Virus record (IMG/VR): IMGVR_UViG_2698536559_000013
Strand: one strand, 5' to 3'
Length of the DNA stretch: 10,585 nt
Source of the DNA: a virus
Taxonomy: Duplodnaviria; Heunggongvirae; Uroviricota; Caudoviricetes
A program made the position numbers and the translations under genes. Positions within the stretch are counted from its first letter, which is position 1; the number at the start of each line of letters is the position of its first letter. Of the stretch, positions 1-10,585 are shown piece after piece. The notes under the pieces are model-generated. The model saw only the letters and a program-made list of their open reading frames with translations, was not told the DNA's origin and made no database searches.

Positions 1-21
1 AATACGGTGCTCCGTTGACGC

Positions 22-3000
22 TTACGTTTTATCAACCACCAACGCACCATATTTAGACGGCCCAGATGTCTTAACATTCAATGCTCGACCACTTAATGCT
101 TCGCCTGACTTACTTTTCAACAGTAACGTAAATACCAGATTGTTGGTATCGCTCACTACAGCCGAAGATGCAGATGATGTGATCTCCAACACAGCCCCCT
201 TCACATCCGTTACGGCATCAATATTCTGGCTTGCGGTTATGCGTTTCCCATCCAGAACATACTCGGCCTGAATTGTGTACTGGCCTGATTTCGTTGCAGT
301 GAACTGCGTTGTTGCCTGTCCATGAGCATCCAGTTGCAGATTACTACTGGTCAATGATGCTCCCGTCGATGGTGTAATCGTTAAATCCACCTCGCCTGTA
401 AACGCATTGTTATTCGCATCAACCAACTGAATGTTTACTGTTGCGTTTTCACTGCCATCGGCCACAATCTCCTGTTTTGATACACTCATAGTAAGTTCTG
501 CAGAAGCAACATCGGGCACAAAAGTTAACTTAACGCTGCCAGATTCCACGCTATGGGAACCGTCAGTCACCCGTGCAGTCACCGTGTACTCACCAGCTTT
601 CACCGTTGTAAGCGGAACAGAAACATGCCCTGTTGAATCAGTCACGATATTTGTTGGTACAGATAATCCTTCAGATGAGGTGATGAGCTGAATCTTTTGC
701 CCATTGACCGACGCATTCGTATTTGTCAGCTGCACATCTAATACCGCTGCATCCTTACCATTAGCAGGAATATTGGAAATTAAACTACTGCTTTCAGGCG
801 TCAGTGACAGTGAAGCTCCGGTCATATTTGATGCAAAGGTCACTGTTAACTCAGTAGACATCTGAGAACCAGCATGAGCTGTAATCACGTAAGACCCCGG
901 AGTGGAGCTTATTAACGCAAAAATAGCATTACCATTTTCGTCAGTTGAAACAGCATGTTCACCACCAACTTGAGTTATCCCTGCTGGTAAAGACAATGTG
1001 ACAGCATAACCAGGAACAACATTGCCGAAACGGTCCGCAAGGCTTACAGTTACCATATTTCTCTGTTTTCCATCAGCCAATGCATTATTTTGGCTGGCTT
1101 CAAACTGAGAGAATGTAACCTGCTGCCGGTCCTCAATAAAGGTGATTTCTTTCTTAACACCTGAGAAATCATGACTATCAGATTTAACACCGATAGTAAT
1201 CTTACCAGCTCGTTTTGAAGTTACTGTCGCGCTATAGACACCGTCTTTTTCCGTTACAGTCCCAAACTCGACTCCTTCTGCCTGGTTAAGAGCATAAAAG
1301 CTCAGAGTGTTATCACCAGTGATTGCATTTCCTTGTGAATCCTTCACTGCCAGTTGTAGATTGATATTGTAACCAACTACCTGTTCTGCTGGTGCAGCGG
1401 TTAAAACAGCACTGACCTCAGAATCAGGTTCTGTTGCTGCTGTTTGCTTAATACTGAGAGTAAATGTTTTTCCCTGAACTTTTGCAGTTACACGTACCGT
1501 ACCAGCCTGCGAACCAGCAGTCAGAACAGAGTGATATACCCCAGCAGAGATTTCCTCTACCGCGCCTAATGACGGAGCAGTTACCGTTTCACGCTGTCGA
1601 GCACTATTGCTATCTGCTGTAAATTCCACTGACATTTCAATGTCATCAGCCAGTCCGGTTAATGCCTTACCGTTACTATCTTTCAGGCTTAATACTATCG
1701 GATAAGTGGATTGGCTATCAGCAGAGATCGTCGGCGACGAATCTCCATCCAGTGTAAAAGATGAATCCGCTGTCGAGACACCACTATTATTAACGCTGAT
1801 ATTCATAACGGCATAGTTGGAAACATTGCCTCTGTTATCCTGGACTGTGGCTCCAACATTCCACGAATTTACATCTCCGCTTTTATAAGCCGGTAAAGTG
1901 ATCTGCCATGATGTGCCATTTCCACTGATCTTACCGCCAGCCGCAGTGAATGCACTATCATTCCACTGTACAGACTTGATACCACCACTAGCATTGTTGA
2001 TTGTCAGTGTTACAGGGATGATTGATTCCCCCTCCCCCTGAACAGACTCTGGTAAGCTGATTTTCAGTGCATGCTTCTTCTTGTACTCCAGAACAATGTT
2101 GTTATTTCGTTCAACAAAATCATAACGCCGGTTCTGGACTTCTCGCATAACAGCAACATTGTCACTGCTAAGCTGTTCAGCAAGGGAAACGCCCGGGCGA
2201 TAATTAAACTCAACACCAAAGGTTGTATCGTGAACGTTGCTCTGTCCTTGCTTATGCTGTGCAGAAAACTTAATCAGAGGAACTGGTGTATAAGAAATTC
2301 CCCCAGTAACTGCGTAAGGGTTTTCCTGAAGATTATCGCTTCCAAATAACCCGACATTTTTACCATAATATTTTTCAAACTGAATGGATGCCCCTAATTG
2401 CGGATAAGCAGGTAGCCATCCTTCAGCAGAAAAATCCCAGCCATTTGCGGGTCTTTCCAGATAATCATCAATATCCCGACTGTTCTTCCAGTCAGACAAA
2501 CCAAAATAGGTATTTACACCAAGCCTGAAATAATCTCTCCAGTACTCAACCCCAAAACCTGCACGAGAGTGACTGCGACTTAAATCGTAATCATAGAAAA
2601 CATTCGCACCCAACATTGCGTTATCAGGAGTGAAATGACGAATCCCCAAACCAATATTGGTCTGATTTCGGTCATCAGTACGATGTAGTGATGTCTGACT
2701 GAATAGCACATAATCCTGAGTATCCAGCCATGGATATAAAAAGTCGAATGATGAATCCTTCAAGGAAAAAGAATCATCGACATTAAGCTTGATGCGCGCA
2801 TTGCCATATTGTTGCAACCAGTCGACGACCTCTTTTGTCGCCTGAGTTGATAAAGTATTTACAGCAAAACTACTTGCATTATTATTTGCTAGGCTCTGAC
2901 CTGCACTTGCTGCAAATGAGGCCACTTTATTTGCATGCTCATCGCTGGCATAAGTTTGCGTAACATCTTTATTACCAGATGATGCAAAACTGTTTGCTGG

Positions 3001-3102
3001 GATCAAAGAAAGAGAAACTGGAGATAATATCTGGGTAACAATTACCGACCATGTAATCGCGCCAGATGCAGTTTTTTTTAACTTTTTATTCACAGTGGTC
3101 AT
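22..3102 (-). CDS. Inverse autotransporter adhesin (intimin/invasin family), 1026 aa, apparently full length
   Basis: Long uninterrupted minus-strand ORF (stop TAA at 22-24, ATG at 3100-3102). N-terminus is hydrophobic and signal-peptide-like, followed by a sequence typical of the inverse-autotransporter beta-barrel domain (e.g. YDYDLSRSHSRAGFGVEYWRDYFRLGVNTYF, FGVEFNYRPGV). The rest is Ser/Thr/Val/Gly-rich, consistent with bacterial Ig-like (Big) repeat passenger domains. Family call is from recalled sequence features; domain boundaries were not computed. Confidence 0.85.
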   Translation of the reverse strand: MTTVNKKLKKTASGAITWSVIVTQILSPVSLSLIPANSFASSGNKDVTQTYASDEHANKVASFAASAGQSLANNNASSFAVNTLSTQATKEVVDWLQQYGNARIKLNVDDSFSLKDSSFDFLYPWLDTQDYVLFSQTSLHRTDDRNQTNIGLGIRHFTPDNAMLGANVFYDYDLSRSHSRAGFGVEYWRDYFRLGVNTYFGLSDWKNSRDIDDYLERPANGWDFSAEGWLPAYPQLGASIQFEKYYGKNVGLFGSDNLQENPYAVTGGISYTPVPLIKFSAQHKQGQSNVHDTTFGVEFNYRPGVSLAEQLSSDNVAVMREVQNRRYDFVERNNNIVLEYKKKHALKISLPESVQGEGESIIPVTLTINNASGGIKSVQWNDSAFTAAGGKISGNGTSWQITLPAYKSGDVNSWNVGATVQDNRGNVSNYAVMNISVNNSGVSTADSSFTLDGDSSPTISADSQSTYPIVLSLKDSNGKALTGLADDIEMSVEFTADSNSARQRETVTAPSLGAVEEISAGVYHSVLTAGSQAGTVRVTAKVQGKTFTLSIKQTAATEPDSEVSAVLTAAPAEQVVGYNINLQLAVKDSQGNAITGDNTLSFYALNQAEGVEFGTVTEKDGVYSATVTSKRAGKITIGVKSDSHDFSGVKKEITFIEDRQQVTFSQFEASQNNALADGKQRNMVTVSLADRFGNVVPGYAVTLSLPAGITQVGGEHAVSTDENGNAIFALISSTPGSYVITAHAGSQMSTELTVTFASNMTGASLSLTPESSSLISNIPANGKDAAVLDVQLTNTNASVNGQKIQLITSSEGLSVPTNIVTDSTGHVSVPLTTVKAGEYTVTARVTDGSHSVESGSVKLTFVPDVASAELTMSVSKQEIVADGSENATVNIQLVDANNNAFTGEVDLTITPSTGASLTSSNLQLDAHGQATTQFTATKSGQYTIQAEYVLDGKRITASQNIDAVTDVKGAVLEITSSASSAVVSDTNNLVFTLLLKSKSGEALSGRALNVKTSGPSKYGALVVDKT

Positions 3103-3351
3103 AGTTCAATCAACGTTATGAATATAATGAAAAAAATAACTGGTATGACAAGAGGCGCGAAATATACAGCTCGTTACAAAAAAATCAACTCAAAAATAAA
3201 ATAAAATCTCTGCATAAACTTTATGGCTAAATGATTTCACAACAATGGAAGAAAAATTTTGTTGCTCACGCAATCAATCATTTCGGGCGTTACAACTAGT
3301 CCTAGATTATATTCGCTAGGTATACTTTATTTTTAAGCTAATACTTTAGCT
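3103..3351 (-). promoter_or_regulatory. AT-rich upstream region of the adhesin gene; putative promoter/regulatory region
   Basis: About 250 bp of strongly AT-rich non-coding sequence between the stop of the P fragment and the adhesin start codon. No specific -35/-10 elements were confidently identified. Confidence 0.3.
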
Positions 3352-3912
3352 CTATTTCATCGCTCCTTTCAGCCCGAACTTAGCTTTGATTTCTGCGATC
3401 TTCGCCAGAGCCTGTGCACGATTTAGAGGTCTACCGCCCATGACAGGAAGTTGTTTTACTGGTTCAGGTATAGCCTCACCACGGTTAATTCGTGCGGTCA
3501 TACAGGACAGTTCATCGGCAGCCTTGCGCCGTAATTCCGCGTCAGTCAACGCATTGGCCCGCATGTTCTGATACAGGTTGGTAACCAGCCAGTAGTGCGC
3601 GTTTGATTTCCACGGATAAGACTCTGCATCCAGATACAGCCCGCGCTTCCGGCAATACTCGTAAACCATATCAACCAGCTCGCTGGCGTTTGGCAGTCCG
3701 GCGGTAACGGATGCTTCTTCCCGGCACCAGGCAACAAACTGCCCGGGTGATGGCAGGAATGGTCGATTCTGCCGACGGGCGACACGCACTCCGGCGCTCA
3801 CCTGTTCCATTGTGGTGATCCCGTTTTCCCGGAAAGCCAGAACCCACTGGCGGCGGATTTCGTTCAGTTCGTTCTGGTCCCGGTTAGCCAGGCTCGCCGG
3901 GAAAGTTGCCAG
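3352..3912 (-). pseudogene. P: C-terminal fragment of lambda replication protein P (about residues 48-233); first in-frame Met is at 3810, giving a 152-aa ORF
   Basis: Minus-strand translation reads LATFPASLANRDQNELNEIRRQWVLAFRENGITTMEQVSAGVRVARRQNRPFLPSPGQFVAWCREEASVTAGLP...RAQALAKIAEIKAKFGLKGAMK, which I recognise as near-identical to the C-terminal part of lambda P. In-frame sequence above about 3913 (RANHGYKCVRCRDADI) no longer matches P. The extreme C-terminus (GAMK) and downstream sequence also differ from lambda, where ren would follow. Confidence 0.85.
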
Positions 3913-3997
3913 TATATCTGCATCGCGGCATCGAACGCACTTATACCCGTGATTTGCTCGTGGAAGTTTTTCTCGACGGACGCGGTAACGGCCTGAA
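3913..3997. other. Junction segment of unknown origin between the P fragment and the gam-proximal lambda-like sequence
   Basis: P homology ends near 3913, and sequence I recognise as the region just upstream of lambda gam (tcactaa...cctgttttcctaatcagcccggcatttcgcgggcgatattttcacagc) begins near 3998. The roughly 85 bp between matches neither as far as I can recall. Confidence 0.4.
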
Positions 3998-4079
3998 TCA
4001 CTAATCTCCTTTCCTGTTTTCCTAATCAGCCCGGCATTTCGCGGGCGATATTTTCACAGCCATTTTCAGGAGTTCAGCC

Positions 4080-4376
4080 ATGAACGCTTATTACATTCAG
4101 GATCGTCTTGAGGCTCAGAGCTGGGCGCGTCACTACCAGCAGATCGCCCGTGAAGAGAAAGAGGCAGAACTGGCAGACGACATGGAAAAAGGCCTGCCCC
4201 AGCACCTGTTTGAATCGCTATGCATCGATCATTTGCAACGTCACGGGGCCAGCAAAAAAGCCATTACCCGTGCGTTTGATGACGATGTTGAGTTTCAGGA
4301 GCGCATGGCAGAACACATCCGGTACATGGTTGAAACCATTGCTCACCACCAGGTTGATATTGATTCAGAGGTATAA
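4080..4376 (+). CDS. gam: Gam (short GamS form, 98 aa), RecBCD inhibitor
   Basis: ORF translation [98 protein letters not shown] matches lambda Gam from its internal Met onward, with two substitutions relative to my recollection. Strong SD caggag sits 7 nt upstream of the ATG. Confidence 0.9.
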
Positions 4377-4381
4377 AACGA

Positions 4382-4911
4382 ATGAGTACTGCACTCGCAA
4401 CGCTGGCAGGGAAGCTGGCTGAACGTGTCGGCATGGATTCTGTCGACCCACAGGAACTGATCACCACTCTTCGCCAGACGGCATTTAAAGGTGATGCCAG
4501 CGATGCGCAGTTCATCGAAAAACCCGCGAAGGCAGAGAAATCACCGGACCGTGGCAGTCGCATCCCAAACGAATGTTGCGGCATAAAGCCATGATTCAGT
4601 GTGCCCGTCTGGCCTTCGGATTTGCTGGTATCTATGACAAGGATGAAGCCGAGCGCATTGTCGAAAATACTGCATACACTGCGGAACGTCAGCCGGAACG
4701 CGACATCACTCCGGTTAACGATGAAACCATGCAGGAGATTAACACTCTGCTGATCGCCCTGGATAAAACATGGGATGACGACTTATTGCCGCTCTGTTCC
4801 CAGATATTTCGCCGCGACATTCGCGCATCGTCAGAACTGACACAGGCCGAAGCAGTGAAAGCTCTTGGATTCCTGAAACAGAAAGCCACTGAGCAGAAGG
4901 TGGCAGCATGA
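4382..4911 (+). pseudogene. bet: bet (Red-beta single-strand annealing protein) disrupted by an internal out-of-frame deletion
   Basis: N-terminal 45 residues (MSTALATLAGKLAERVGMDSVDPQELITTLRQTAFKGDASDAQFI) match lambda Bet, then the frame reads non-Bet sequence to a stop at 4592-4594. The Bet C-terminal part (PKRMLRHKAMIQCARLAFGFAGIYDKDEAERIVENTAYTAERQPERD...[11 protein letters not shown]) continues in the +1 frame to 4911. The breakpoint lies near 4515-4520 (ttcatcg/aaaaacccgcgaagg). Confidence 0.85.
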
Positions 4912-5588
4912 CACCGGACATTATCCTGCAGCGTACCGGGATCGACGTGAGAGCTGTCGAACAGGGGGATGATGCATGGCACAAATTACGGCTCGGCGTC
5001 ATCACCGCTTCAGAAGTTCATAACGTGATAGCAAAGCCCCGATCAGGAAAGAAGTGGCCTGACATGAAAATGTCCTACTTCCACACCCTGCTGGCTGAGG
5101 TTTGCACCGGTGTGGCTCCGGAAGTTAATGCTAAGGCGCTGGCCTGGGGAAAACAGTACGAGAACGACGCCAGAACTCTGTTTGAATTCACTTCCGGCGT
5201 GAATGTTACTGAATCCCCGATCATCTATCGCGACGAAAGTATGCGCACCGCCTGCTCTCCCGATGGTTTATGCAGTGACGGCAATGGCCTTGAGCTGAAA
5301 TGCCCGTTTACCTCCCGGGATTTCATGAAGTTCCGGCTCGGTGGTTTCGAGGCCATAAAGTCGGCTTACATGGCCCAGGTGCAGTACAGCATGTGGGTGA
5401 CGCGAAAAGATGCCTGGTACTTTGCCAACTATGACCCGCGTATGAAGCGTGAAGGACTGCATTATGTCGTGGTTGAGCGGGATGAAAAGTACATGGCGAG
5501 TTTTGACGAGATGGTGCCGGAGTTCATCGAAAAAATGGACGAGGCACTGGCTGAAATTGGTTTTGTATTTGGGGAGCAATGGCGATGA
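4908..5588 (+). CDS. exo: Lambda-type exonuclease (Red-alpha, Exo), 226 aa
   Basis: Full-length ORF whose translation ([65 protein letters not shown]...[15 protein letters not shown]) matches lambda Exo with a few substitutions. ATGA start/stop overlap with bet, as in lambda. Confidence 0.95.
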
Positions 5589-5767
5589 AGCATCCTCACG
5601 ATAATATCCGGGTAGGCGCGATCACTTTCGTCTACTCCGTTACAAAGCGAGGCTGGGTATTTCCCGGCCTTTCTGTTATCCGAAATCCCCTGAAAGCACA
5701 GCGGCTGGCTGAGGAGATAAATAATAAACGGGGAGCTGTATGCACAAAGCATCTCCCGTTGAGTTAA
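5585..5767 (+). CDS. orf60a: Lambda orf60a-like small protein (60 aa from the ATG overlapping the exo stop; an upstream ATG at 5579 would give 62 aa)
   Basis: Translation [57 protein letters not shown]... matches my recollection of lambda orf60a. ATGA overlap with the exo stop. Confidence 0.7.
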
Positions 5768-5931
5768 GAACGAGTATCGAGATGGCACATAGCCTCGCTC
5801 AAATTGGAGTCAGGTTTGTGCCAATACCAGTAGAAACAGACGAAGAATTTCATACGTTAGCCGCATCCCTTTCACAAAAGCTGGAAATGATGGTGGCGAA
5901 AGCAGAAGCAGATGAGAGAGACCAGGTATGA
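5740..5931 (+). CDS. orf63: Lambda orf63-like small protein (63 aa)
   Basis: ORF of exactly 63 codons ([63 protein letters not shown]) in the position of orf63 of the lambda early-left operon. Overlaps the 3' end of orf60a in another frame. Confidence 0.7.
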   Translation: MHKASPVELRTSIEMAHSLAQIGVRFVPIPVETDEEFHTLAASLSQKLEMMVAKAEADERDQV

Positions 5932-6011
5932 CAACCACTGAATGCATTTTTCTGGCAGCGGTCTTCATATTCTGTGTGCTTATGCTTGCCGACATGGGAC
6001 TTGTTCAATGA
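5928..6011 (+). CDS. Candidate 27-aa hydrophobic small protein (MTTTECIFLAAVFIFCVLMLADMGLVQ)
   Basis: Below the ORF-track size cutoff. Its ATG overlaps the orf63 stop as ATGA (5928-5931) and its stop overlaps the orf61 start as ATGA (6008-6011). The core is strongly hydrophobic, consistent with a single transmembrane helix. Confidence 0.4.
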   Translation: MTTTECIFLAAVFIFCVLMLADMGLVQ

Positions 6012-6223
6012 CACCTCAGCAAGAAAACGCCCTTCGCAGCATTGCCCATCTGGCTAATTATGAAATCAAAAAAGCCAGACAGCAGTTTCCGGATAAAAAC
6101 GTCGATGACATTTGCCGTAGCGTACTGAAGAAGCACCGCGAAACGGTAACGCTGATGGGATTCACACCGACTCATTTAAGCCTGGCGATCGGCATGTTAA
6201 ACGGCGTCTTTAAGGAACGGTGA
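6008..6223 (+). CDS. orf61: Lambda orf61-like small protein (71 aa from this ATG)
   Basis: Translation MTPQQENALRSIAHLANYEIKKARQQFPDKNVDDICRSVLKKHRETVTLMGFTPTHLSLAIGMLNGVFKER; position and sequence are consistent with lambda orf61. The track ORF starts at an upstream ATG (5942), but the ATGA-coupled start at 6008 is more plausible. Confidence 0.65.
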   Translation: MTPQQENALRSIAHLANYEIKKARQQFPDKNVDDICRSVLKKHRETVTLMGFTPTHLSLAIGMLNGVFKER

Positions 6224-6225
6224 GC

Positions 6226-6315
6226 ATGAAAAACAAAATCATCATGGAGCTACAGGCTCCTTTTTTATTATTCGCATTCACCCTCAAGCGTATTAACCAA
6301 CAATTCAGGGATTAA
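6226..6315 (+). CDS. Candidate 29-aa small ORF (MKNKIIMELQAPFLLFAFTLKRINQQFRD)
   Basis: Short ORF filling the gap between orf61 and orf73, with aagga about 9 nt upstream of the ATG. No homology recognised; could be non-coding spacer. Confidence 0.2.
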   Translation: MKNKIIMELQAPFLLFAFTLKRINQQFRD

Positions 6316-6321
6316 TGAAAG

Positions 6322-6543
6322 ATGGCAGACATCATTGATTCAGCATCAGAAATTGAAGAATTACAGCGCAACACAGCAATAAAAATGCGCCGCCTGAACC
6401 ACCAGGCTATATCTGCCACTCATTGTTGTGAGTGTGGCGATCCGATAGATGAACGAAGACGTCTGGCCGTTCAGGGTTGTCGGACTTGTGCAAGTTGCCA
6501 GGAAGATCTGGAGCTTATCAGTAAACAGAGAGGTTCGAAGTGA
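6322..6543 (+). CDS. orf73: TraR/DksA-family C4 zinc-finger protein (lambda orf73-like), 73 aa
   Basis: 73-aa ORF with two Cys pairs (CCECGDP...CRTCASC) typical of the TraR/DksA zinc finger. Position matches lambda orf73. Confidence 0.8.
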   Translation: MADIIDSASEIEELQRNTAIKMRRLNHQAISATHCCECGDPIDERRRLAVQGCRTCASCQEDLELISKQRGSK

Positions 6544-7088
6544 GCGAAATTAACTCTCAGGCACTGCGTGAAGCGGCAGAGCAGGCAATGCATGACGACT
6601 GGGGATTTGATGCGGACCTTTTCCATGAGCTGGTAACACCATCGATTGTGCTGGCGCTGCTGGATGAACGGGAATCCCAAAACAAGCGTATTGCAGAACT
6701 GGAGAAAAGCGAAGAGCAACTCATTAACGAGCGTGACCATGCTGAGTCTGCTTTAGATGATATGTACTTTGCAGCAACCGGTAACAGGCCGGAGTGGAGC
6801 AACTGGTTCGGCTTTTCAGATGCTGTCGATGCCGTGGTTGACAGAATTGCTGATTTAGAAGCTAAACAATGCATTGAAGAGATGAGTAAACAAAGTTGCG
6901 AAGCTCGGGAGCGTGATTTGTTTGAATCATGGGTAATGCATTCAATTTGTATTTCCAAATCGACGCTTGAAGGATTGCGCACCGAAACTGGATACCGTAA
7001 CGCGACCTTATCAGGAACAGACTTCAACCGCATGTGGGAACAATGGAAATCTATCCGCGCTGCTGGTATTCGCATCAAAGGAGACTGA
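6540..7088 (+). CDS. ea22: Ea22-like protein, 182 aa (GTG start)
   Basis: 182-codon ORF whose N-terminus MSEINSQALREAAEQAMHDDWGFDADLFHELVTPSIVL matches my recollection of lambda Ea22. GTG start overlaps the orf73 stop (GTGA). Central region is coiled-coil-like and charged. Confidence 0.8.
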   Translation: MSEINSQALREAAEQAMHDDWGFDADLFHELVTPSIVLALLDERESQNKRIAELEKSEEQLINERDHAESALDDMYFAATGNRPEWSNWFGFSDAVDAVVDRIADLEAKQCIEEMSKQSCEARERDLFESWVMHSICISKSTLEGLRTETGYRNATLSGTDFNRMWEQWKSIRAAGIRIKGD

Positions 7089-7089
7089 T

Positions 7090-7299
7090 ATGGCTATTGC
7101 CGCAAGTTATACCATGCATCTCTATTGTGATTGTCGCCAGTGTACGGAAGGTGTATATCCAGTGCCAGACTTCGGTGAGTATATCGGTACGTCATGGTCT
7201 GGTTGTGCAAAAGAGGCCCGTAAAGATGGGTGGCGAATAAGCAAAGACAAAACACGTACTTTTGCGCCCGGGCATAAAGTTTTGAGGATTAACACATGA
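7090..7299 (+). CDS. ea8.5: Ea8.5-like Cys-rich small protein (69 aa from the ATG at 7090)
   Basis: ORF with the Cys motif HLYCDCRQCTEG...SGCAKEARKDGW in the position of lambda ea8.5. SD aaggag immediately upstream of the 7090 ATG. The track's longer version (from 6967) overlaps ea22 out of frame and is less likely. Confidence 0.7.
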   Translation: MAIAASYTMHLYCDCRQCTEGVYPVPDFGEYIGTSWSGCAKEARKDGWRISKDKTRTFAPGHKVLRINT

Positions 7300-8078
7300 C
7301 CACTATTACCAAAGAACGTATTGAATTGTTCATTAAAAATCCGCTTGAAAACGGGCTTACTCGTGGCGAACAAATGGAACTGGCACGAATTGCACTGGCA
7401 TCACTGGAACGCGAACAGATTCGCCACGAGCATGCCAAATGGTCTGACTCCACATTTGGCTGCGTTGGCCCCATTGGTCCACTGAAACACCTCTCAAAAG
7501 AGGCACTGGAAGCCGCAGCCGAACCAGACGATCTTAGCGAGTGGGCTGATATGCAGTTTCTGTTGTGGGATGCACAACGCCGTGCTGGCATCAGCGATGC
7601 TGAAATTAACGTTGCTATGGAAGATAAATTGAAGATCAACATGGAGCGCCAGTGGCCTGAGCCAAAAGATGGTGAGCCTCGCTTGCACATTAAAGAACCC
7701 GGCAACTCTCCGGTAATTCCGGATGGTTTATCCACGGTATGCGCTGAGGCTTATCAGGTTGTAGGAGTTATGGCAGATGCGCTTGGTGTATTCGGTGATG
7801 CAGCAGTACAGAAAGTTCTGGATAACCTGTCACAGCAAAAACTTGTTCACAGAGATGTGCTGCCGTTCTCGCTTCCGGTAACTCCGGATAGTTGGATAAG
7901 CTGTAGTGAGCGAATGCCGAACGACGCGCAGTGGTGCGTAGTGAACACAGAATACGGGTATTACGCGCAATGCTGGTCTGAAGGTCAAGGGTGGCTTGGT
8001 GATGATATCAGCATCCCTGAATGCGATGTAATCAATTGGATGCCACTACCAGAACCGCCGCAGGAGGTGAATCAATGA
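7296..8078 (+). CDS. Phage accessory protein with an N-terminal MazG-like (DUF550, dATP/dGTP pyrophosphohydrolase-type) domain and a C-terminal DUF551-like Cys/Trp-rich domain, 260 aa
   Basis: ATGA overlap with the ea8.5 stop; SD gagga 7 nt upstream. The N-terminal half carries acidic helix motifs (KEALEAAAEPDDLSEWADMQFLLWDAQRRAG) resembling all-alpha NTP pyrophosphohydrolases. The C-terminal half (WISCSERMPNDAQWCVVNTEYGYYAQCWSEGQGWLGDDISIPECDVINWMPLPEPP) resembles DUF551. Domain calls are from memory of motifs, not a profile search. Confidence 0.75.
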   Translation: MTTITKERIELFIKNPLENGLTRGEQMELARIALASLEREQIRHEHAKWSDSTFGCVGPIGPLKHLSKEALEAAAEPDDLSEWADMQFLLWDAQRRAGISDAEINVAMEDKLKINMERQWPEPKDGEPRLHIKEPGNSPVIPDGLSTVCAEAYQVVGVMADALGVFGDAAVQKVLDNLSQQKLVHRDVLPFSLPVTPDSWISCSERMPNDAQWCVVNTEYGYYAQCWSEGQGWLGDDISIPECDVINWMPLPEPPQEVNQ

Positions 8079-8158
8079 GCTGGCCTGAAGCATTCGCAAC
8101 GGTAGGAATTGCAATGGCGGTAGCACTGGTTTTGTATTCAATTTGTCGCTGGGGATAA
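8075..8158 (+). CDS. Candidate 27-aa membrane peptide (MSWPEAFATVGIAMAVALVLYSICRWG)
   Basis: ATGA overlap with the stop of the 260-aa gene; SD-like caggaggtga 5-14 nt upstream. Hydrophobic core consistent with one transmembrane helix. Below the ORF-track cutoff. Confidence 0.4.
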   Translation: MSWPEAFATVGIAMAVALVLYSICRWG

Positions 8159-8279
8159 CGATGATGCTCATGCGGAAATCATCAAAAAAATGGAACTGCT
8201 AACATGATTTAGGTGGGAGCCTGGAAGATGGCTCCACATATCAACATAGATTATTTCAGGATTCCATATTTTAACTAAT

Positions 8280-9164
8280 CTAAGTTCGACTATTTGGGGC
8301 ATTGATATGCTGTAAATGATGCTTAAGCCAATTTCCAGCCGCGCCTGGTGGCGATTTTTTATTCCAAAGCAGATCGATAGAAATTGCCTTTGGCCAGCCA
8401 GGTACGTCGAGCTGAACCAGCGGTTTTTCTGTTGCAAACTCCTCAACCAGAGCACAGGGCAGAGAGCACCAGCCAAATCCCTGTACGGCCATACTGAGTA
8501 ACAACAAATAGTTAGGTGCAGACCAAACCGGTCCACGGGCAATCATCTCCCGGTTATCGATATAAGTATTAAGACGAAGTTCTCGCCATGAATGAAGTTG
8601 TTCCCGCTGGATTGTTTTTTCTGCAGACAGTGGATGTGACGCCGAAACATAAATGCCCATCCACGCTTGCATCGGTAAACGGGTTGAGCCAATATCGGTG
8701 GGGTAGTGTTCCCGAGACTCAATTAAGCCGATCTGCGCTCGTTCTTTTTGCAAAAGATCGATGACATCGACATCCTCACCAATTAAAACCTCTAACTCAG
8801 TATGTGGAAACTGACTATCAAACTGCACCATGATGTCTTCTAATAAGTCAGGGTGTAGGGTATCGGAAAGCACAAACGTCAGACGAGCTTCAGTCTCTCC
8901 GGCAAGCGAAACCGCCACCTCCTCAAGACGTTCACTGGCTGACAAAATCGCATGAACGTAACTCAATACTTTCTTTCCTTCCTCTGTCAGCACAGGTTCT
9001 CGCGAAGAGCGATCGAATAATGATATACCAAGATCGACCTCAAGATTGGCAATTGACGTACTGACTGCGGACTGACTTTTGCGTAATCTTCGTGCCGCAG
9101 CAGAAAAGGAGCCACAGGAAACCGCTTCAACAAATGTACTTAACGCTTCAAGTGAGTAACGCAT
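8280..9164 (-). CDS. LysR-family transcriptional regulator, 294 aa
   Basis: N-terminal HTH typical of LysR-type regulators (LEALSTFVEAVSCGSFSAAARRLRKSQSAVSTSIANLEVDLGISLFDRSSREPVLTEEG) followed by a co-inducer-binding-type domain. Transcribed divergently from the adjacent transporter gene. Confidence 0.9.
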   Translation of the reverse strand: MRYSLEALSTFVEAVSCGSFSAAARRLRKSQSAVSTSIANLEVDLGISLFDRSSREPVLTEEGKKVLSYVHAILSASERLEEVAVSLAGETEARLTFVLSDTLHPDLLEDIMVQFDSQFPHTELEVLIGEDVDVIDLLQKERAQIGLIESREHYPTDIGSTRLPMQAWMGIYVSASHPLSAEKTIQREQLHSWRELRLNTYIDNREMIARGPVWSAPNYLLLLSMAVQGFGWCSLPCALVEEFATEKPLVQLDVPGWPKAISIDLLWNKKSPPGAAGNWLKHHLQHINAPNSRT

Positions 9165-9267
9165 AATCTATCAATTTTTTCGATGGTATCTATCTTTTAT
9201 ATATCACATAAATCGATAAAAATCTCACAACTCCATAACGCGGTCGAAACTGTAAGAAAGGTAAGTT
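9165..9267. promoter_or_regulatory. Divergent intergenic control region between the LysR gene and the PACE transporter gene
   Basis: 103-bp AT-rich spacer between divergent start codons. Contains an imperfect inverted repeat, tttttcgat (9176-9184) and atcgataaaaa (9213-9223), as might serve a LysR-type operator. No promoter elements were verified. Confidence 0.4.
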
Positions 9268-9726
9268 ATGCAACATAATGCGATTCAACGCAGATCGTTA
9301 CTTGAGCGTATTTTTCACGCTATTTGCTTTGAAGGAATTGCCACTGCGATTCTGGCCCCCACCACAGCATGGTTAATGCAGCGAACTATACTCGAAATGG
9401 GCGGGATGACTATCTTGTTGGCTTCAACTGCAATGATCTGGAATATCATCTATAACATGCTATTTGATCGCTACTGGCCTGCTCATCAGGTAAAACGAAC
9501 TGCAAAAGTTCGTGCATTCCATGCTTTGGGCTTTGAAAGTGGATTTATCGCGATCGGCGTCATTATGGTGTCCTGGATTCTGAGCGTCAGTCTGTTACAG
9601 GCTTTTACACTAGAGATAGGATTCTTCCTTTTCTTTCTACCATATACCATGTTCTACAATTGGGCCTATGACAGCTTACGTTTACGTGTTGTGAAACAGC
9701 ATCAACAACGTATGCTTGCCAGATAA
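9268..9726 (+). CDS. PACE-family (AceI-like) small efflux transporter, 152 aa
   Basis: Two tandem repeats each beginning with the R-x-x-h-A-x-x-F-E motif (ERIFHAICFEG and VRAFHALGFESG), plus WNxxYNxxFD-like motifs (MIWNIIYNMLFD, MFYNWAYD) and four predicted hydrophobic helices. Divergent LysR partner, as in aceR-aceI. Confidence 0.8.
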   Translation: MQHNAIQRRSLLERIFHAICFEGIATAILAPTTAWLMQRTILEMGGMTILLASTAMIWNIIYNMLFDRYWPAHQVKRTAKVRAFHALGFESGFIAIGVIMVSWILSVSLLQAFTLEIGFFLFFLPYTMFYNWAYDSLRLRVVKQHQQRMLAR

Positions 9727-9800
9727 TGTTTTCCCAGGGGAGTAATGAAAATCGCGCAATAATTTTCGATATCCATACTGTACCCCCACCGACTTAACAT

Positions 9801-9827
9801 CCCCGCCCTCGCGGGGATTTCTTTTAT
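9801..9827 (+). terminator. Rho-independent terminator downstream of the PACE gene
   Basis: GC-rich hairpin ccccgc-cctc-gcgggg (9801-9816) followed by a T-rich tract atttcttttat. Confidence 0.6.
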
Positions 9828-9830
9828 CTG

Positions 9831-9857
9831 AACTCGCTACGGCGAGTTTTGTTTTAT
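9831..9857 (+). terminator. Second tandem hairpin plus T-tract; possible back-up terminator
   Basis: aactcgc-tacg-gcgagtt stem-loop (9831-9848) followed by ttgttttat. Confidence 0.4.
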
Positions 9858-9868
9858 GGGGATGATAA

Positions 9869-10036
9869 ATGCACTTCCGAGTCACAGGAGAATGGAATGG
9901 AGAGCCATTCAACAGGGTTATCGAAACAGAGAACATCAACGACTGCTATGACCACTGGATAATATGGGCGCAGATAGCACATGCAGACATAACCAATATT
10001 CGAATTGAAGAACTGAAAGAACACCAAGCCGCCTGA
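9869..10036 (+). CDS. Candidate 55-aa protein of unknown function (MHFRVTGEWNGEPFNRVIETENINDCYDHWIIWAQIAHADITNIRIEELKEHQAA)
   Basis: Below the track cutoff. SD gggga 6 nt upstream of the ATG; in-frame stop immediately upstream; followed directly by a terminator hairpin. No family recognised. Confidence 0.45.
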   Translation: MHFRVTGEWNGEPFNRVIETENINDCYDHWIIWAQIAHADITNIRIEELKEHQAA

Positions 10037-10049
10037 TGGCGGTTTTTTT
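10028..10049 (+). terminator. Rho-independent terminator/attenuator overlapping the stop of the 55-aa ORF
   Basis: gccgcc-tgat-ggcgg hairpin followed by ttttttt (10043-10049). Confidence 0.55.
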
Positions 10050-10063
10050 ATTGGAGACAAGAA

Positions 10064-10408
10064 ATGTCAGATTTGGCTATGAAGGTTTTGAAATGGCAAT
10101 CGACTGGCGATGTTGGCATCAGTAGCGCAACTCTTGCCTCAATCGCATGTGGACTGAAAAAGAATATCTATGGTCATAGCTTCGGTGCTCCACATGACGC
10201 AGCCGATTTCAGACGATGCGTTGCACTTGTTGAGCAGATTCCAGAAATCAGAGATTCATTCGACAAGGTTGCAAAGCGCGTTCCGGCATTCAAAGGCATC
10301 CTCAACGAATGGGATTCCCTCGTTGCTCTGTTGAAGTCAGAAATGAAGATACACGGAAACAAAGCACCAGAGACTTACAGAAGAATCAGCGAGCTACGCA
10401 AGGACTAA
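10064..10408 (+). CDS. Hypothetical protein, 114 aa, unknown function
   Basis: ORF with SD ggaga 6 nt upstream of the ATG. Soluble-looking, mixed-charge protein (MSDLAMKVLKWQSTGDVGISSATLASIACGLKKNIYGHSFGAPHDAADFRRCVALVEQIPEIRDSFDKVAKRV...). No family recognised. Confidence 0.6.
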   Translation: MSDLAMKVLKWQSTGDVGISSATLASIACGLKKNIYGHSFGAPHDAADFRRCVALVEQIPEIRDSFDKVAKRVPAFKGILNEWDSLVALLKSEMKIHGNKAPETYRRISELRKD

Positions 10409-10585
10409 CCATGAAATAACACCGCCTCACACTCGATGAGGCCTGTTCATTGCTCAATGATATCCAGACCTACCGCAATAATACCAACTCAATAAATGGA
10501 GATTCCAGGTGGAAGAAGAAATCTTCACTCGTGAAGAGGCAGCATCGTATCTGAAGGTAGTGTAGTGGTCAACAAAAACTGGCCA

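Follow-up and report, generated by a model that had tools for sequence, protein, structure and literature searches.

A moron-like FdeC-type adhesin gene in a decayed lambdoid prophage, cut short by an IS66-family terminus

The window, by which we mean the whole 10,585-nt stretch of DNA that was analysed, carries at its left end an inverse-autotransporter (IAT) adhesin gene, joined on one side to the end of an insertion sequence (IS) and on the other to the remains of a lambda-type prophage. The features of this locus are as follows.

1..25, no strand: terminus of an IS66-family element (ISEc23-like), 25 bp; gene-strand reading GTAAGCGTCAACGGAGCACCGTATT
22..3102, minus strand: inverse-autotransporter adhesin ORF, a single long ORF of 1026 aa
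26..3102, minus strand: 5' 3077 bp of the adhesin gene, codons 1-1025 plus 2 nt of codon 1026
2983..3102, minus strand: putative signal peptide, about residues 1-40, from a by-eye reading of the translation
2101..2934, minus strand: IAT beta-barrel (translocator), residues 57-334, from Pfam PF11924 and PDB matches
1780..2079, minus strand: first passenger domain, a D00-like Ig domain, residues 342-441 (PDB 6tqd, E 9e-10)
25..1773, minus strand: array of Ig-like domains, residues 444-1026, from a segment-wise Pfam scan and the IS junction at codon 1026
3103..3351, minus strand: AT-rich spacer upstream of the adhesin, 249 bp, 30% GC
3188-3161 and 3151-3124, minus strand: sigma-70-like hexamer pairs in the spacer, from a consensus match
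3352..3914, minus strand: 3' 563 bp of replication gene P (lambda type), without the part coding for the N-terminus
3914..3915, no strand: deletion junction of the prophage relic, from alignment to the ST131 prophage locus L002
3915..4376, plus strand: kil 3' remnant and intergenic DNA, then gam, divergent from P and the adhesin gene
4080-4376, plus strand: gam, intact

The window ORF is an inverse autotransporter (type Ve) of the intimin/invasin family, in agreement with the preliminary description of this DNA. Both the beta-barrel and the Ig-like repeats for which that description had asked a domain annotation were found: Pfam IAT_beta (PF11924) matches residues 57-334 over the full model (positions 3-279 of 279, E 3.3e-101), and Big_1 or Invasin_D3 is matched in 4-5 stretches of the ORF. 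Among PDB sequences, the barrel matches invasin (4e1t, 9e-74) and intimin (4e1s, 7e-63), and further matches of the adhesin are to intimin D00-D0 (6tqd) and invasin (1cwv). The putative signal peptide, as read by eye, has a Lys-rich n-region, a hydrophobic core AITWSVIVTQILSPVSLSLIP of about 20 residues and a likely cleavage site SFA/SS, and this N-terminus can be aligned with that of FdeC. In the segment-wise Pfam scan the D00-like segment (residues 342-441) had no match, and every segment of about 100 aa from residue 444 to 1058 matched Invasin_D3 or Big_1. Five Ig-like domains are complete in the window ORF (approximately residues 444-555, 560-655, 665-756, 776-862 and 870-960), and the sixth after D00, which spans residues 974-1058 in the intact protein, is cut mid-domain. 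Neither LysM nor lectin-like domains were found in the adhesin by Pfam, including the C-terminal part of the intact protein. The RefSeq label of the adhesin is already generic, "inverse autotransporter beta domain-containing protein".

The gene had been described as complete; however, its stop codon lies inside the IS66-family terminus, and 157 residues are absent. The TAA at window positions 22-24 is bases 2-4 of the IS, whose terminal inverted repeat, starting GTAAGCG, is placed exactly at the adhesin junction. Read from 25 to 1, the window is identical to the outer end of an annotated ISEc23 at L002 5934-5958, an element with annotated tnpA, tnpB and transposase genes and an 8-bp target duplication CAAAACCC. 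This exact match rules out that bases 1-25 are a divergent Big-repeat allele in another frame. In 5426 complete E. coli genomes all matches have window base 26 as their first base and none reaches base 1, and bases 1-25 joined to base 26 onward have no match there. The DNA of E. coli 377323_2f (NZ_CP039404), a strain that carries the same relic, is 100% identical over window positions 26-4517, and the window protein shows 0 mismatches to the 1183-aa protein of that strain over residues 1-1026, and then stops. Intact homologues extend 157-514 aa beyond the window ORF (1183-1540 aa in total), and the copy number of a 119-aa Ig unit varies among them. Relative to the 1183-aa form, the last 157 residues are lost, namely half of the sixth Ig-like domain and a unique tip; thus, the copy is not complete because the IS has cut off its outer tip. 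This tip, of about 110 aa and found in the intact protein only, is family-specific: it has no Pfam match above noise and no PDB sequence match, a search for homologues brought up nothing but E. coli fragments of this very protein, and its single-sequence AF2 model was unusable (pLDDT 39).

Could the junction at 25/26 be a short-read assembly artefact ending in repeat k-mers, with the gene intact in the source genome? Each end of the window is exactly 25 nt of an IS terminus, of IS66 type on the left and of the IS3 family on the right (TGTAGTGGTCAACAAAAACTGGCCA), a usual sign of contigs broken at repeats, and the Logan contigs with the adhesin ORF likewise end about 30 nt into an IS. However, De Bruijn contigs hold only k-mers of reads, and the same IS junction recurs in at least 2 other sequencing runs among the three Logan contigs that carry the adhesin ORF, with the IS match lengthened to 29-30 nt in two contigs from other runs. 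Moreover, the break coincides with the first base of the inverted repeat of the IS, just as it does in the ST131 insertion, which has an 8-bp duplication, and such an exact breakpoint fits a real transposition and not a random chimera. We therefore consider an artefact very improbable. The transposition itself may have been a simple insertion, with the distal part kept and an 8-bp duplication made, or an IS-mediated deletion, the other IS end lying outside the window. For a simple ISEc23 insertion the predicted 8-bp target duplication is GATAAAAC on the gene strand, and the distal part of the gene beyond the IS junction includes the stretch CACAGTAACGACTGATAAGAACGG. Neither the window junction nor the predicted second IS junction was present in an exact search of viral and metagenome collections. 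In practice, before an ORF that stops some 25 nt or less from the edge of a contig is taken as complete, one should look for an IS terminus there.

On its other side the adhesin gene has its own AT-rich upstream region, as had been noted, and in other prophages this 249-bp spacer is kept along with the gene, with 98-100% identity over 26-3351. A promoter of the adhesin would be expected in 3103-3351; the promoter-like matches there occur at chance frequency (3 found vs 1.9 expected in shuffles). The GC content is 43.7% in the adhesin ORF (GC3 36%), 30% in the spacer and 55% in the adjoining P fragment. The suggestion that the gene was horizontally acquired agrees with this low GC and with the occurrence of the gene in 561 of 5426 genomes. 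Silencing by H-NS had been proposed too, and the AT-richness of the spacer is the one feature that may point to it; the high-affinity H-NS motif TCGATAAATT is absent from the spacer and unenriched in the window. A strong intrinsic terminator lies immediately 3' of the intact adhesin gene in relatives, outside this window.

The spacer abuts the truncated P gene on the same strand, again as described. The P remnant covers only positions 46-162 of 162 of the Pfam model Phage_lambda_P (PF06992), its alignment to the intact ST131 P gene shows that the N-terminal part is gone, and the RefSeq annotation of this fragment reads "replication protein P, incomplete, missing N-terminus". Window positions 3801-3914 correspond to L002 13133-13246, and positions 3915-4198 to L002 16744-17027. 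Compared with the intact ST131 prophage, about 3.5 kb are missing, comprising the 5' end of P, O, a ydaT-like gene, cro-like and cI-like regulators and the 5' part of kil. In lambda-type phages the promoter pR lies in the stretch between P and kil. As the deletion took this stretch, early-operon read-through is not expected, and no promoter-like site was found on the adhesin/P strand between 3352 and 4300, so the proposal that transcription enters the adhesin gene from the relic was not borne out.

These results bear on the reading under which a complete, independently acquired chromosomal adhesin gene lies beside a prophage breakpoint, silenced by H-NS and maybe transcribed by read-through from the relic. 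The ORF is indeed open for 1026 codons with a barrel and Ig-like domains, its upstream DNA is of 30% GC, and it shares a strand with P. However, it stops within an IS terminus with 157 residues gone, the junction between P and the adhesin is native in intact prophages, and the true breakpoint, at 3914/3915, lies beyond P, so that the adhesin is not a neighbour of the relic at its breakpoint. The loss of the P-kil region, the lack of a promoter-like site upstream of P on that strand and a spacer devoid of the H-NS motif speak against the remainder of this reading, which we regard as highly unlikely as a whole.

The position of the gene in other prophages suggests a different relationship. Wherever the flanks are visible, both in the ST131 prophage and across some 30 proviral loci of IMG/VR, the gene order O-P-IAT-(hydrolase)-ybcN/ninE-Q is invariant, and two integrase types occur among the prophage or proviral loci carrying the adhesin. 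This invariant order P-IAT-ybcN/ninE argues for a lambdoid moron, and the gene has further features of one: it lies between conserved phage genes, it is missing from many related prophages, and its GC content is unlike that of the flanking phage genes. Thus, judged from its sequence context, the adhesin gene is cargo of a decayed lambda-like prophage and not its host-DNA neighbour. Of the 5426 complete E. coli genomes, 3688 have matches to the P/gam flank, against about 10% with the adhesin gene (the 561 above), and carriers of the intact gene include many pandemic ST131 strains. A tblastn search of the sequenced phages in INPHARED found no close homologue, the matches having only about 30% identity; since no sequenced free phage in that collection carries the gene, its mobility by active phages would follow from the prophage and proviral context only. 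In GTDB species representatives the only matches were an N-terminal fragment in E. albertii (80% identical) and a 357-bp contig labelled Moraxella osloensis, which is 91% identical to the adhesin gene and so possibly contamination. The E. albertii fragment is chromosomal, not in a prophage setting, and lies downstream of ydcR-ydcW-like genes; the adhesin family is thus not exclusively phage-borne. A full-text literature search found no paper on a prophage-borne adhesin gene of this kind: the family is undescribed in the inverse-autotransporter, prophage and ST131 literature searched, and neither the LF82 prophage-moron paper nor the EAEC 042 genome paper mentions the gene.

Taken together, we think it very probable that a moron cassette (26-3351) has been hit twice, by the deletion of about 3.5 kb in the relic and by insertion of an ISEc23-like element, leaving the gene for a crippled adhesin or a pseudogene. 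The cassette would consist of the AT-rich upstream region and an FdeC-type adhesin gene, placed in lambdoid E. coli prophages with P on one side and the nin region on the other. By analogy with its family, the intact form (1183-1540 aa) would enter the periplasm by its Sec signal peptide, its N-terminal 12-stranded barrel would be inserted into the outer membrane with the help of BAM and TAM, and its C-terminal chain would be threaded out through the barrel as D00, six more Ig-like domains (in the 1183-aa form) and the tip, which the resulting stalk might present for adhesion or biofilm formation. Likewise, it is by family membership that the intact protein is taken for an adhesin. The deletion would have fused the 3' two-thirds of P to kil/gam with loss of the immunity region and the early-promoter stretch; without these, the prophage would be a dead relic, and the adhesin could be transcribed from its own upstream region only. 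The ISEc23-like IS66-family element would have entered codon 1026, creating an immediate TAA at the cost of the last 157 residues.

What the truncated gene still makes is a separate matter. It is known that intimin scaffolds shortened at their C-terminal end are still exported and efficiently displayed, and receptor binding by intimin and invasin maps to the C-terminal domains. One may ask whether the 1026-aa protein still works at the cell surface, for instance in biofilm formation through its Ig-like stalk, with the IS merely changing its specificity. It keeps the putative signal peptide, the barrel, D00 and five complete Ig-like domains, and overexpression of other E. coli inverse autotransporters led to biofilm whether or not they had a lectin cap (PMC6714894). 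However, the truncation leaves the sixth Ig-like domain without part of its fold, which would make it unstable or sensitive to proteases, the binding end is the part that would be missing, and the allele is seldom seen, in 3 Logan contigs but in no complete genome among the 5426, which fits a recent, unselected disruption. We find a working protein rather unlikely; most likely, the truncated product could still be exported and displayed and would lack the distal binding module, that is, a crippled adhesin or a pseudogene.

The window copy is an ordinary accessory gene, probably crippled, and is of little import in itself, as an accessory adhesin gene decaying in a dead prophage. The intact allele, a phage cargo common in ST131, could, like FdeC before it, merit tests for a role as colonisation factor or as antigen. 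We suggest, tentatively, that the intact gene might act in lysogenic conversion, its product being an uncharacterised FdeC-type adhesin spread by prophages, with a tip of perhaps new receptor specificity; the window copy would be an IS-killed remnant of this gene.

Among known systems, FdeC (EaeH) shares with the window adhesin a signal peptide (putative in the latter), an IAT barrel, D00 and a chain of Big_1 Ig-like domains, with neither LysM nor a C-type lectin cap. An FdeC-type subfamily of inverse autotransporters has been defined by Heinz et al. (2016; PMC4943183), and by its architecture of a barrel and Big domains without LysM or lectin cap the window adhesin is an unnamed FdeC-type paralogue. 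An orthologue of FdeC was rejected, as the two are 42% identical over the first 664 residues and the reference strain also carries a separate 1415-aa fdeC at the usual chromosomal locus; the window type, in contrast, is prophage-borne and shorter. With intimin (Eae) and Yersinia invasin it has in common a homologous barrel (4e1s, 4e1t), D00, an Ig-like passenger and the inverse topology. However, identity with intimin was rejected, since the adhesin scores 333.7 bits against the cut-off of 1400 for NCBIfam intimin_all, has neither LysM nor a lectin-like C-terminal domain, and lies in a lambdoid prophage, with no LEE or Tir genes among the annotated genes around it. IatA-D, YeeJ and SinH belong to the same secretion family, and several of them are also accessory genes, but the window adhesin falls below the NCBIfam cut-offs for IatC (404 vs 2400), SinH (319 vs 999) and YchO/IatA (272 vs 508). 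The sizes reported for that group (465, 725, 2934, 1747 and 2359 aa) do not fit it either, and Goh et al. (2019; PMC6714894) place their six genes at conserved chromosomal positions and never use the words phage or prophage. In its location the gene resembles the morons of lambdoid phages, being a non-phage gene of deviating GC between phage modules (here P and ybcN/ninE), with a terminator of its own in relatives that have the intact gene and with an outer-membrane or surface product. Such morons include bor and lom of lambda and the emrE-ybcK-ybcL-ybcM insert between ren and ybcN in DLP12. It differs from them in that the cargo here is a gene for a type Ve adhesin, spanning at least 3.5 kb, which in this window is interrupted by an IS and lies in a prophage that is itself a deletion relic.

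The adhesin gene is a real inverse-autotransporter gene, carried as phage cargo in a deletion relic of a lambda-like prophage and truncated by an IS66-family insertion. The preliminary description had placed it in the intimin/invasin family, with an AT-rich leader and on the same strand as the truncated phage replication gene P. This core observation is correct, since Pfam searches of the window protein recovered the beta-barrel (PF11924, residues 57-334, E 3.3e-101, full model coverage) and Ig-like Big_1/Invasin_D3 matches in 4-5 stretches, the 249-bp spacer upstream of the adhesin ATG (3103-3351) has 30% GC, and the strand is shared with P. In sequence comparison with PDB entries, the barrel matched Yersinia invasin (4e1t, 9e-74) and intimin (4e1s, 7e-63), residues 342-441 matched intimin D00-D0 (6tqd), and the central Ig region matched invasin 1cwv. 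The ORF and the passenger layout, the latter from a Pfam scan by segment, are as follows.

22-3102, minus strand: adhesin ORF, 1026 codons, the sole long ORF there
Residues 342-441: D00, the first passenger domain after the beta-barrel
Residues about 444-555, 560-655, 665-756, 776-862, 870-960 and 974-1058: six Ig-like domains, the last of them whole only in the intact protein

In the same scan the final ~110 residues of the intact protein gave a marginal Big_1 score (E 0.065), and no LysM or C-type lectin domain was found in the adhesin. For the tip, no Pfam, PDB or database homologue was found beyond this E. coli adhesin family, and its single-sequence AlphaFold model was unusable (pLDDT 39).

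The gene had also been described as complete, which it is not. In a megablast search of 5426 complete E. coli genomes, matches start at window base 26, never at base 1. The closest match, strain 377323_2f (NZ_CP039404), shows 100% identity across 26-4517 and 4519-10585 and has an adhesin gene of 1183 codons, to residues 1-1026 of which the window protein aligns with 0 mismatches before it stops. Read along the gene strand, the junction is ...GTTGATAAAAC|GTAAGCGTCAACGGAGCACCGTATT, and the 25 bases past the bar match exactly positions 5934-5958 of the ST131 locus (L002), where an annotated ISEc23 of the IS66 family (tnpA, tnpB, transposase) has its outer end. This ST131 copy has an 8-bp target duplication, CAAAACCC, on both flanks, and its opposite end likewise starts GTAAGCGT. 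IS bases 2-4 supply the TAA that ends the window ORF, and the insertion cuts midway through the sixth of the Ig-like domains that follow D00, removing 157 residues including the entire distal tip.

We regard this junction as the product of genuine transposition, not as a chimera, because it coincides precisely with base 1 of the IS inverted repeat and occurs in several samples. An identical 1026-aa ORF is present on 3 contigs of the Logan sequencing-run assemblies, and the two that we read, both from other runs, continue for 29-30 nt into this IS sequence before they end, so that reads of several samples carry the junction. The predicted second IS junction was not found in viral or metagenome collections. 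ISEc23 has struck the adhesin cassette at least twice independently (L002 5934-8466 and window 25/26), just past the terminator of the adhesin gene in ST131 and at codon 1026 in the window lineage, roughly 530 bp apart. At the right end of the window, the last 25 nt (10561-10585) are precisely an IS3-family end similar to that of IS911, TGTAGTGGTCAACAAAAACTGGCCA, which in 377323_2f runs on into an annotated IS3-family transposase. With 25 nt of an IS terminus at each end, IS66 on the left and IS3 on the right, the window looks like a complete contig of a short-read assembly, delimited by repeats.

The adhesin gene had been thought to abut the prophage breakpoint, and this did not hold. Window 3801-3914 aligns with the ST131 P gene (L002 13133-13246) and window 3915-4198 with the kil 3' end and gam (L002 16744-17027); therefore, about 3.5 kb is absent from the relic, comprising, relative to the ST131 prophage, the P 5' end, O, a ydaT-like gene, both regulators and the kil start. 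The breakpoint lies on the far side of P, and the P 3' end and the P-adhesin junction are in their native arrangement. Within the P remnant, 3352-3810 is a 152-codon ORF from an internal ATG, covering the C-terminal two-thirds of P. At window 4517-4519, within the bet recombinase gene, a single base stands in place of positions 13493-13749 of the 377323_2f locus (L001), i.e., 256 bp fewer than in this otherwise 100%-identical strain, splitting the 261-codon bet into two short ORFs (4382-4594 and 4573-4911); this is the relic's second decay event specific to the lineage. Window 8280-9726, lying between the early-left phage genes and the IS3 element, holds a LysR-family regulator (minus, 294 aa) and, divergently oriented, a PACE-family multidrug/biocide efflux transporter (plus, 152 aa); the relic may carry this pair as additional cargo.

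Judging from the lambda map, the absent segment is where a lambda-type phage would have pR, pL and their operators, and with its loss the natural source of rightward transcription via P into the adhesin gene would be gone. Since, in addition, a promoter scan found no sigma-70-like site on the minus strand from 3352 to 4300, the suggested read-through from the relic into the adhesin gene is unsupported. The sole minus-strand candidates, 3188-3161 and 3151-3124, lie within the AT-rich spacer, in a scan that is overall at chance level (3 sites vs 1.9 expected). H-NS silencing is a reasonable guess from the 30% GC alone; the high-affinity H-NS motif does not occur in the spacer 3103-3351 and is not enriched in the window.

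The ST131 homologue (1302 aa) lies within a lambdoid prophage integrated beside icd, in the order int, xis, ..., exo, bet, gam, kil, cI-like repressor, cro-like regulator, ydaT-like gene, O, P, adhesin, (ISEc23), alpha/beta hydrolase, ybcN, ninE, ybcO, rusA, ylcG, Q and lysis genes. Scanning IMG/VR, we found 37 proviral loci with the adhesin gene, having at least two integrase types, and tblastn mapping showed O-P-adhesin-(hydrolase, opposite strand)-ybcN-ninE-Q to be kept wherever flanks are visible. The adhesin ORF has 43.7% GC (GC3 36%) vs 55% in the adjoining P fragment, and a 9-bp, GC-rich, bidirectional terminator lies directly 3' of the intact gene. Among the 5426 complete E. coli genomes, the P/gam flank occurs in 3688 and the adhesin gene in 561 (about 10%). 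Taken together, its place between conserved modules of the phage, its deviating GC, a terminator of its own and its patchy distribution fit the classical definition of a moron, a non-phage cargo gene within a prophage. DLP12 has cargo at what would be an equivalent position, with emrE-ybcM lying between ren and ybcN. A caveat is that none of the sequenced free phages in INPHARED has the adhesin gene.

In most prophages a 347-aa alpha/beta hydrolase gene (Pfam BD-FAE, E 1e-44) follows the adhesin gene, on the opposite strand; in 377323_2f it is at L001 7446-8489, outside the window and just past the IS. Since some loci are without it (L012, L013, L027, L028 and L036), it seems to be a second, independent item of cargo. 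In E. albertii NBRC 107761 (NZ_BBMY01000075, 10001-10711; L005), an 80%-identical adhesin N-terminal fragment at a contig end lies directly downstream of ydcR-, ydcS-T-U-V- and patD/ydcW-like genes. No phage genes were found around this fragment, and its ordinary chromosomal context may be a clue to where the moron came from.

Among the homologues (P0001-P0120), alleles of 1183, 1302, 1421 and 1540 aa differ in steps of whole 119-aa units, each unit being one Ig-like domain (residues about 440-560, window about 1420-1780), of which the window adhesin is the single-copy form. Many draft and proviral contigs break within this region, which fits near-identical tandem copies of the unit.

By inference from its family, the intact adhesin would first be exported by Sec, BAM/TAM would put its barrel into the membrane, and the Ig chain would be secreted as a hairpin, the tip then being displayed; by analogy with reports on FdeC and IatB-D, adhesion or biofilm formation would be the likely outcome. 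The truncated window product probably still gets to the surface and is most likely non-functional or weakly functional, since its distal module is absent and its chain ends in half a domain.

In architecture the window adhesin belongs to the FdeC type of Heinz et al. 2016 (PMC4943183), with 42% identity to FdeC across the first 664 residues of the window protein. It is not FdeC itself; in the reference strain a separate, normal fdeC of 1415 aa occupies the usual locus. IatC, intimin, SinH and YchO were rejected on NCBIfam scores far under the equivalog cut-offs. Databases label the adhesin only generically, as 'inverse autotransporter beta domain-containing protein', 'adhesin' or 'invasin', and RefSeq already has such a generic annotation for it; it is thus an FdeC-type paralogue without a name of its own. 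Goh et al. 2019 (PMC6714894) gave sizes and fixed chromosomal positions for seven E. coli groups, and the adhesin differs from these groups in both.
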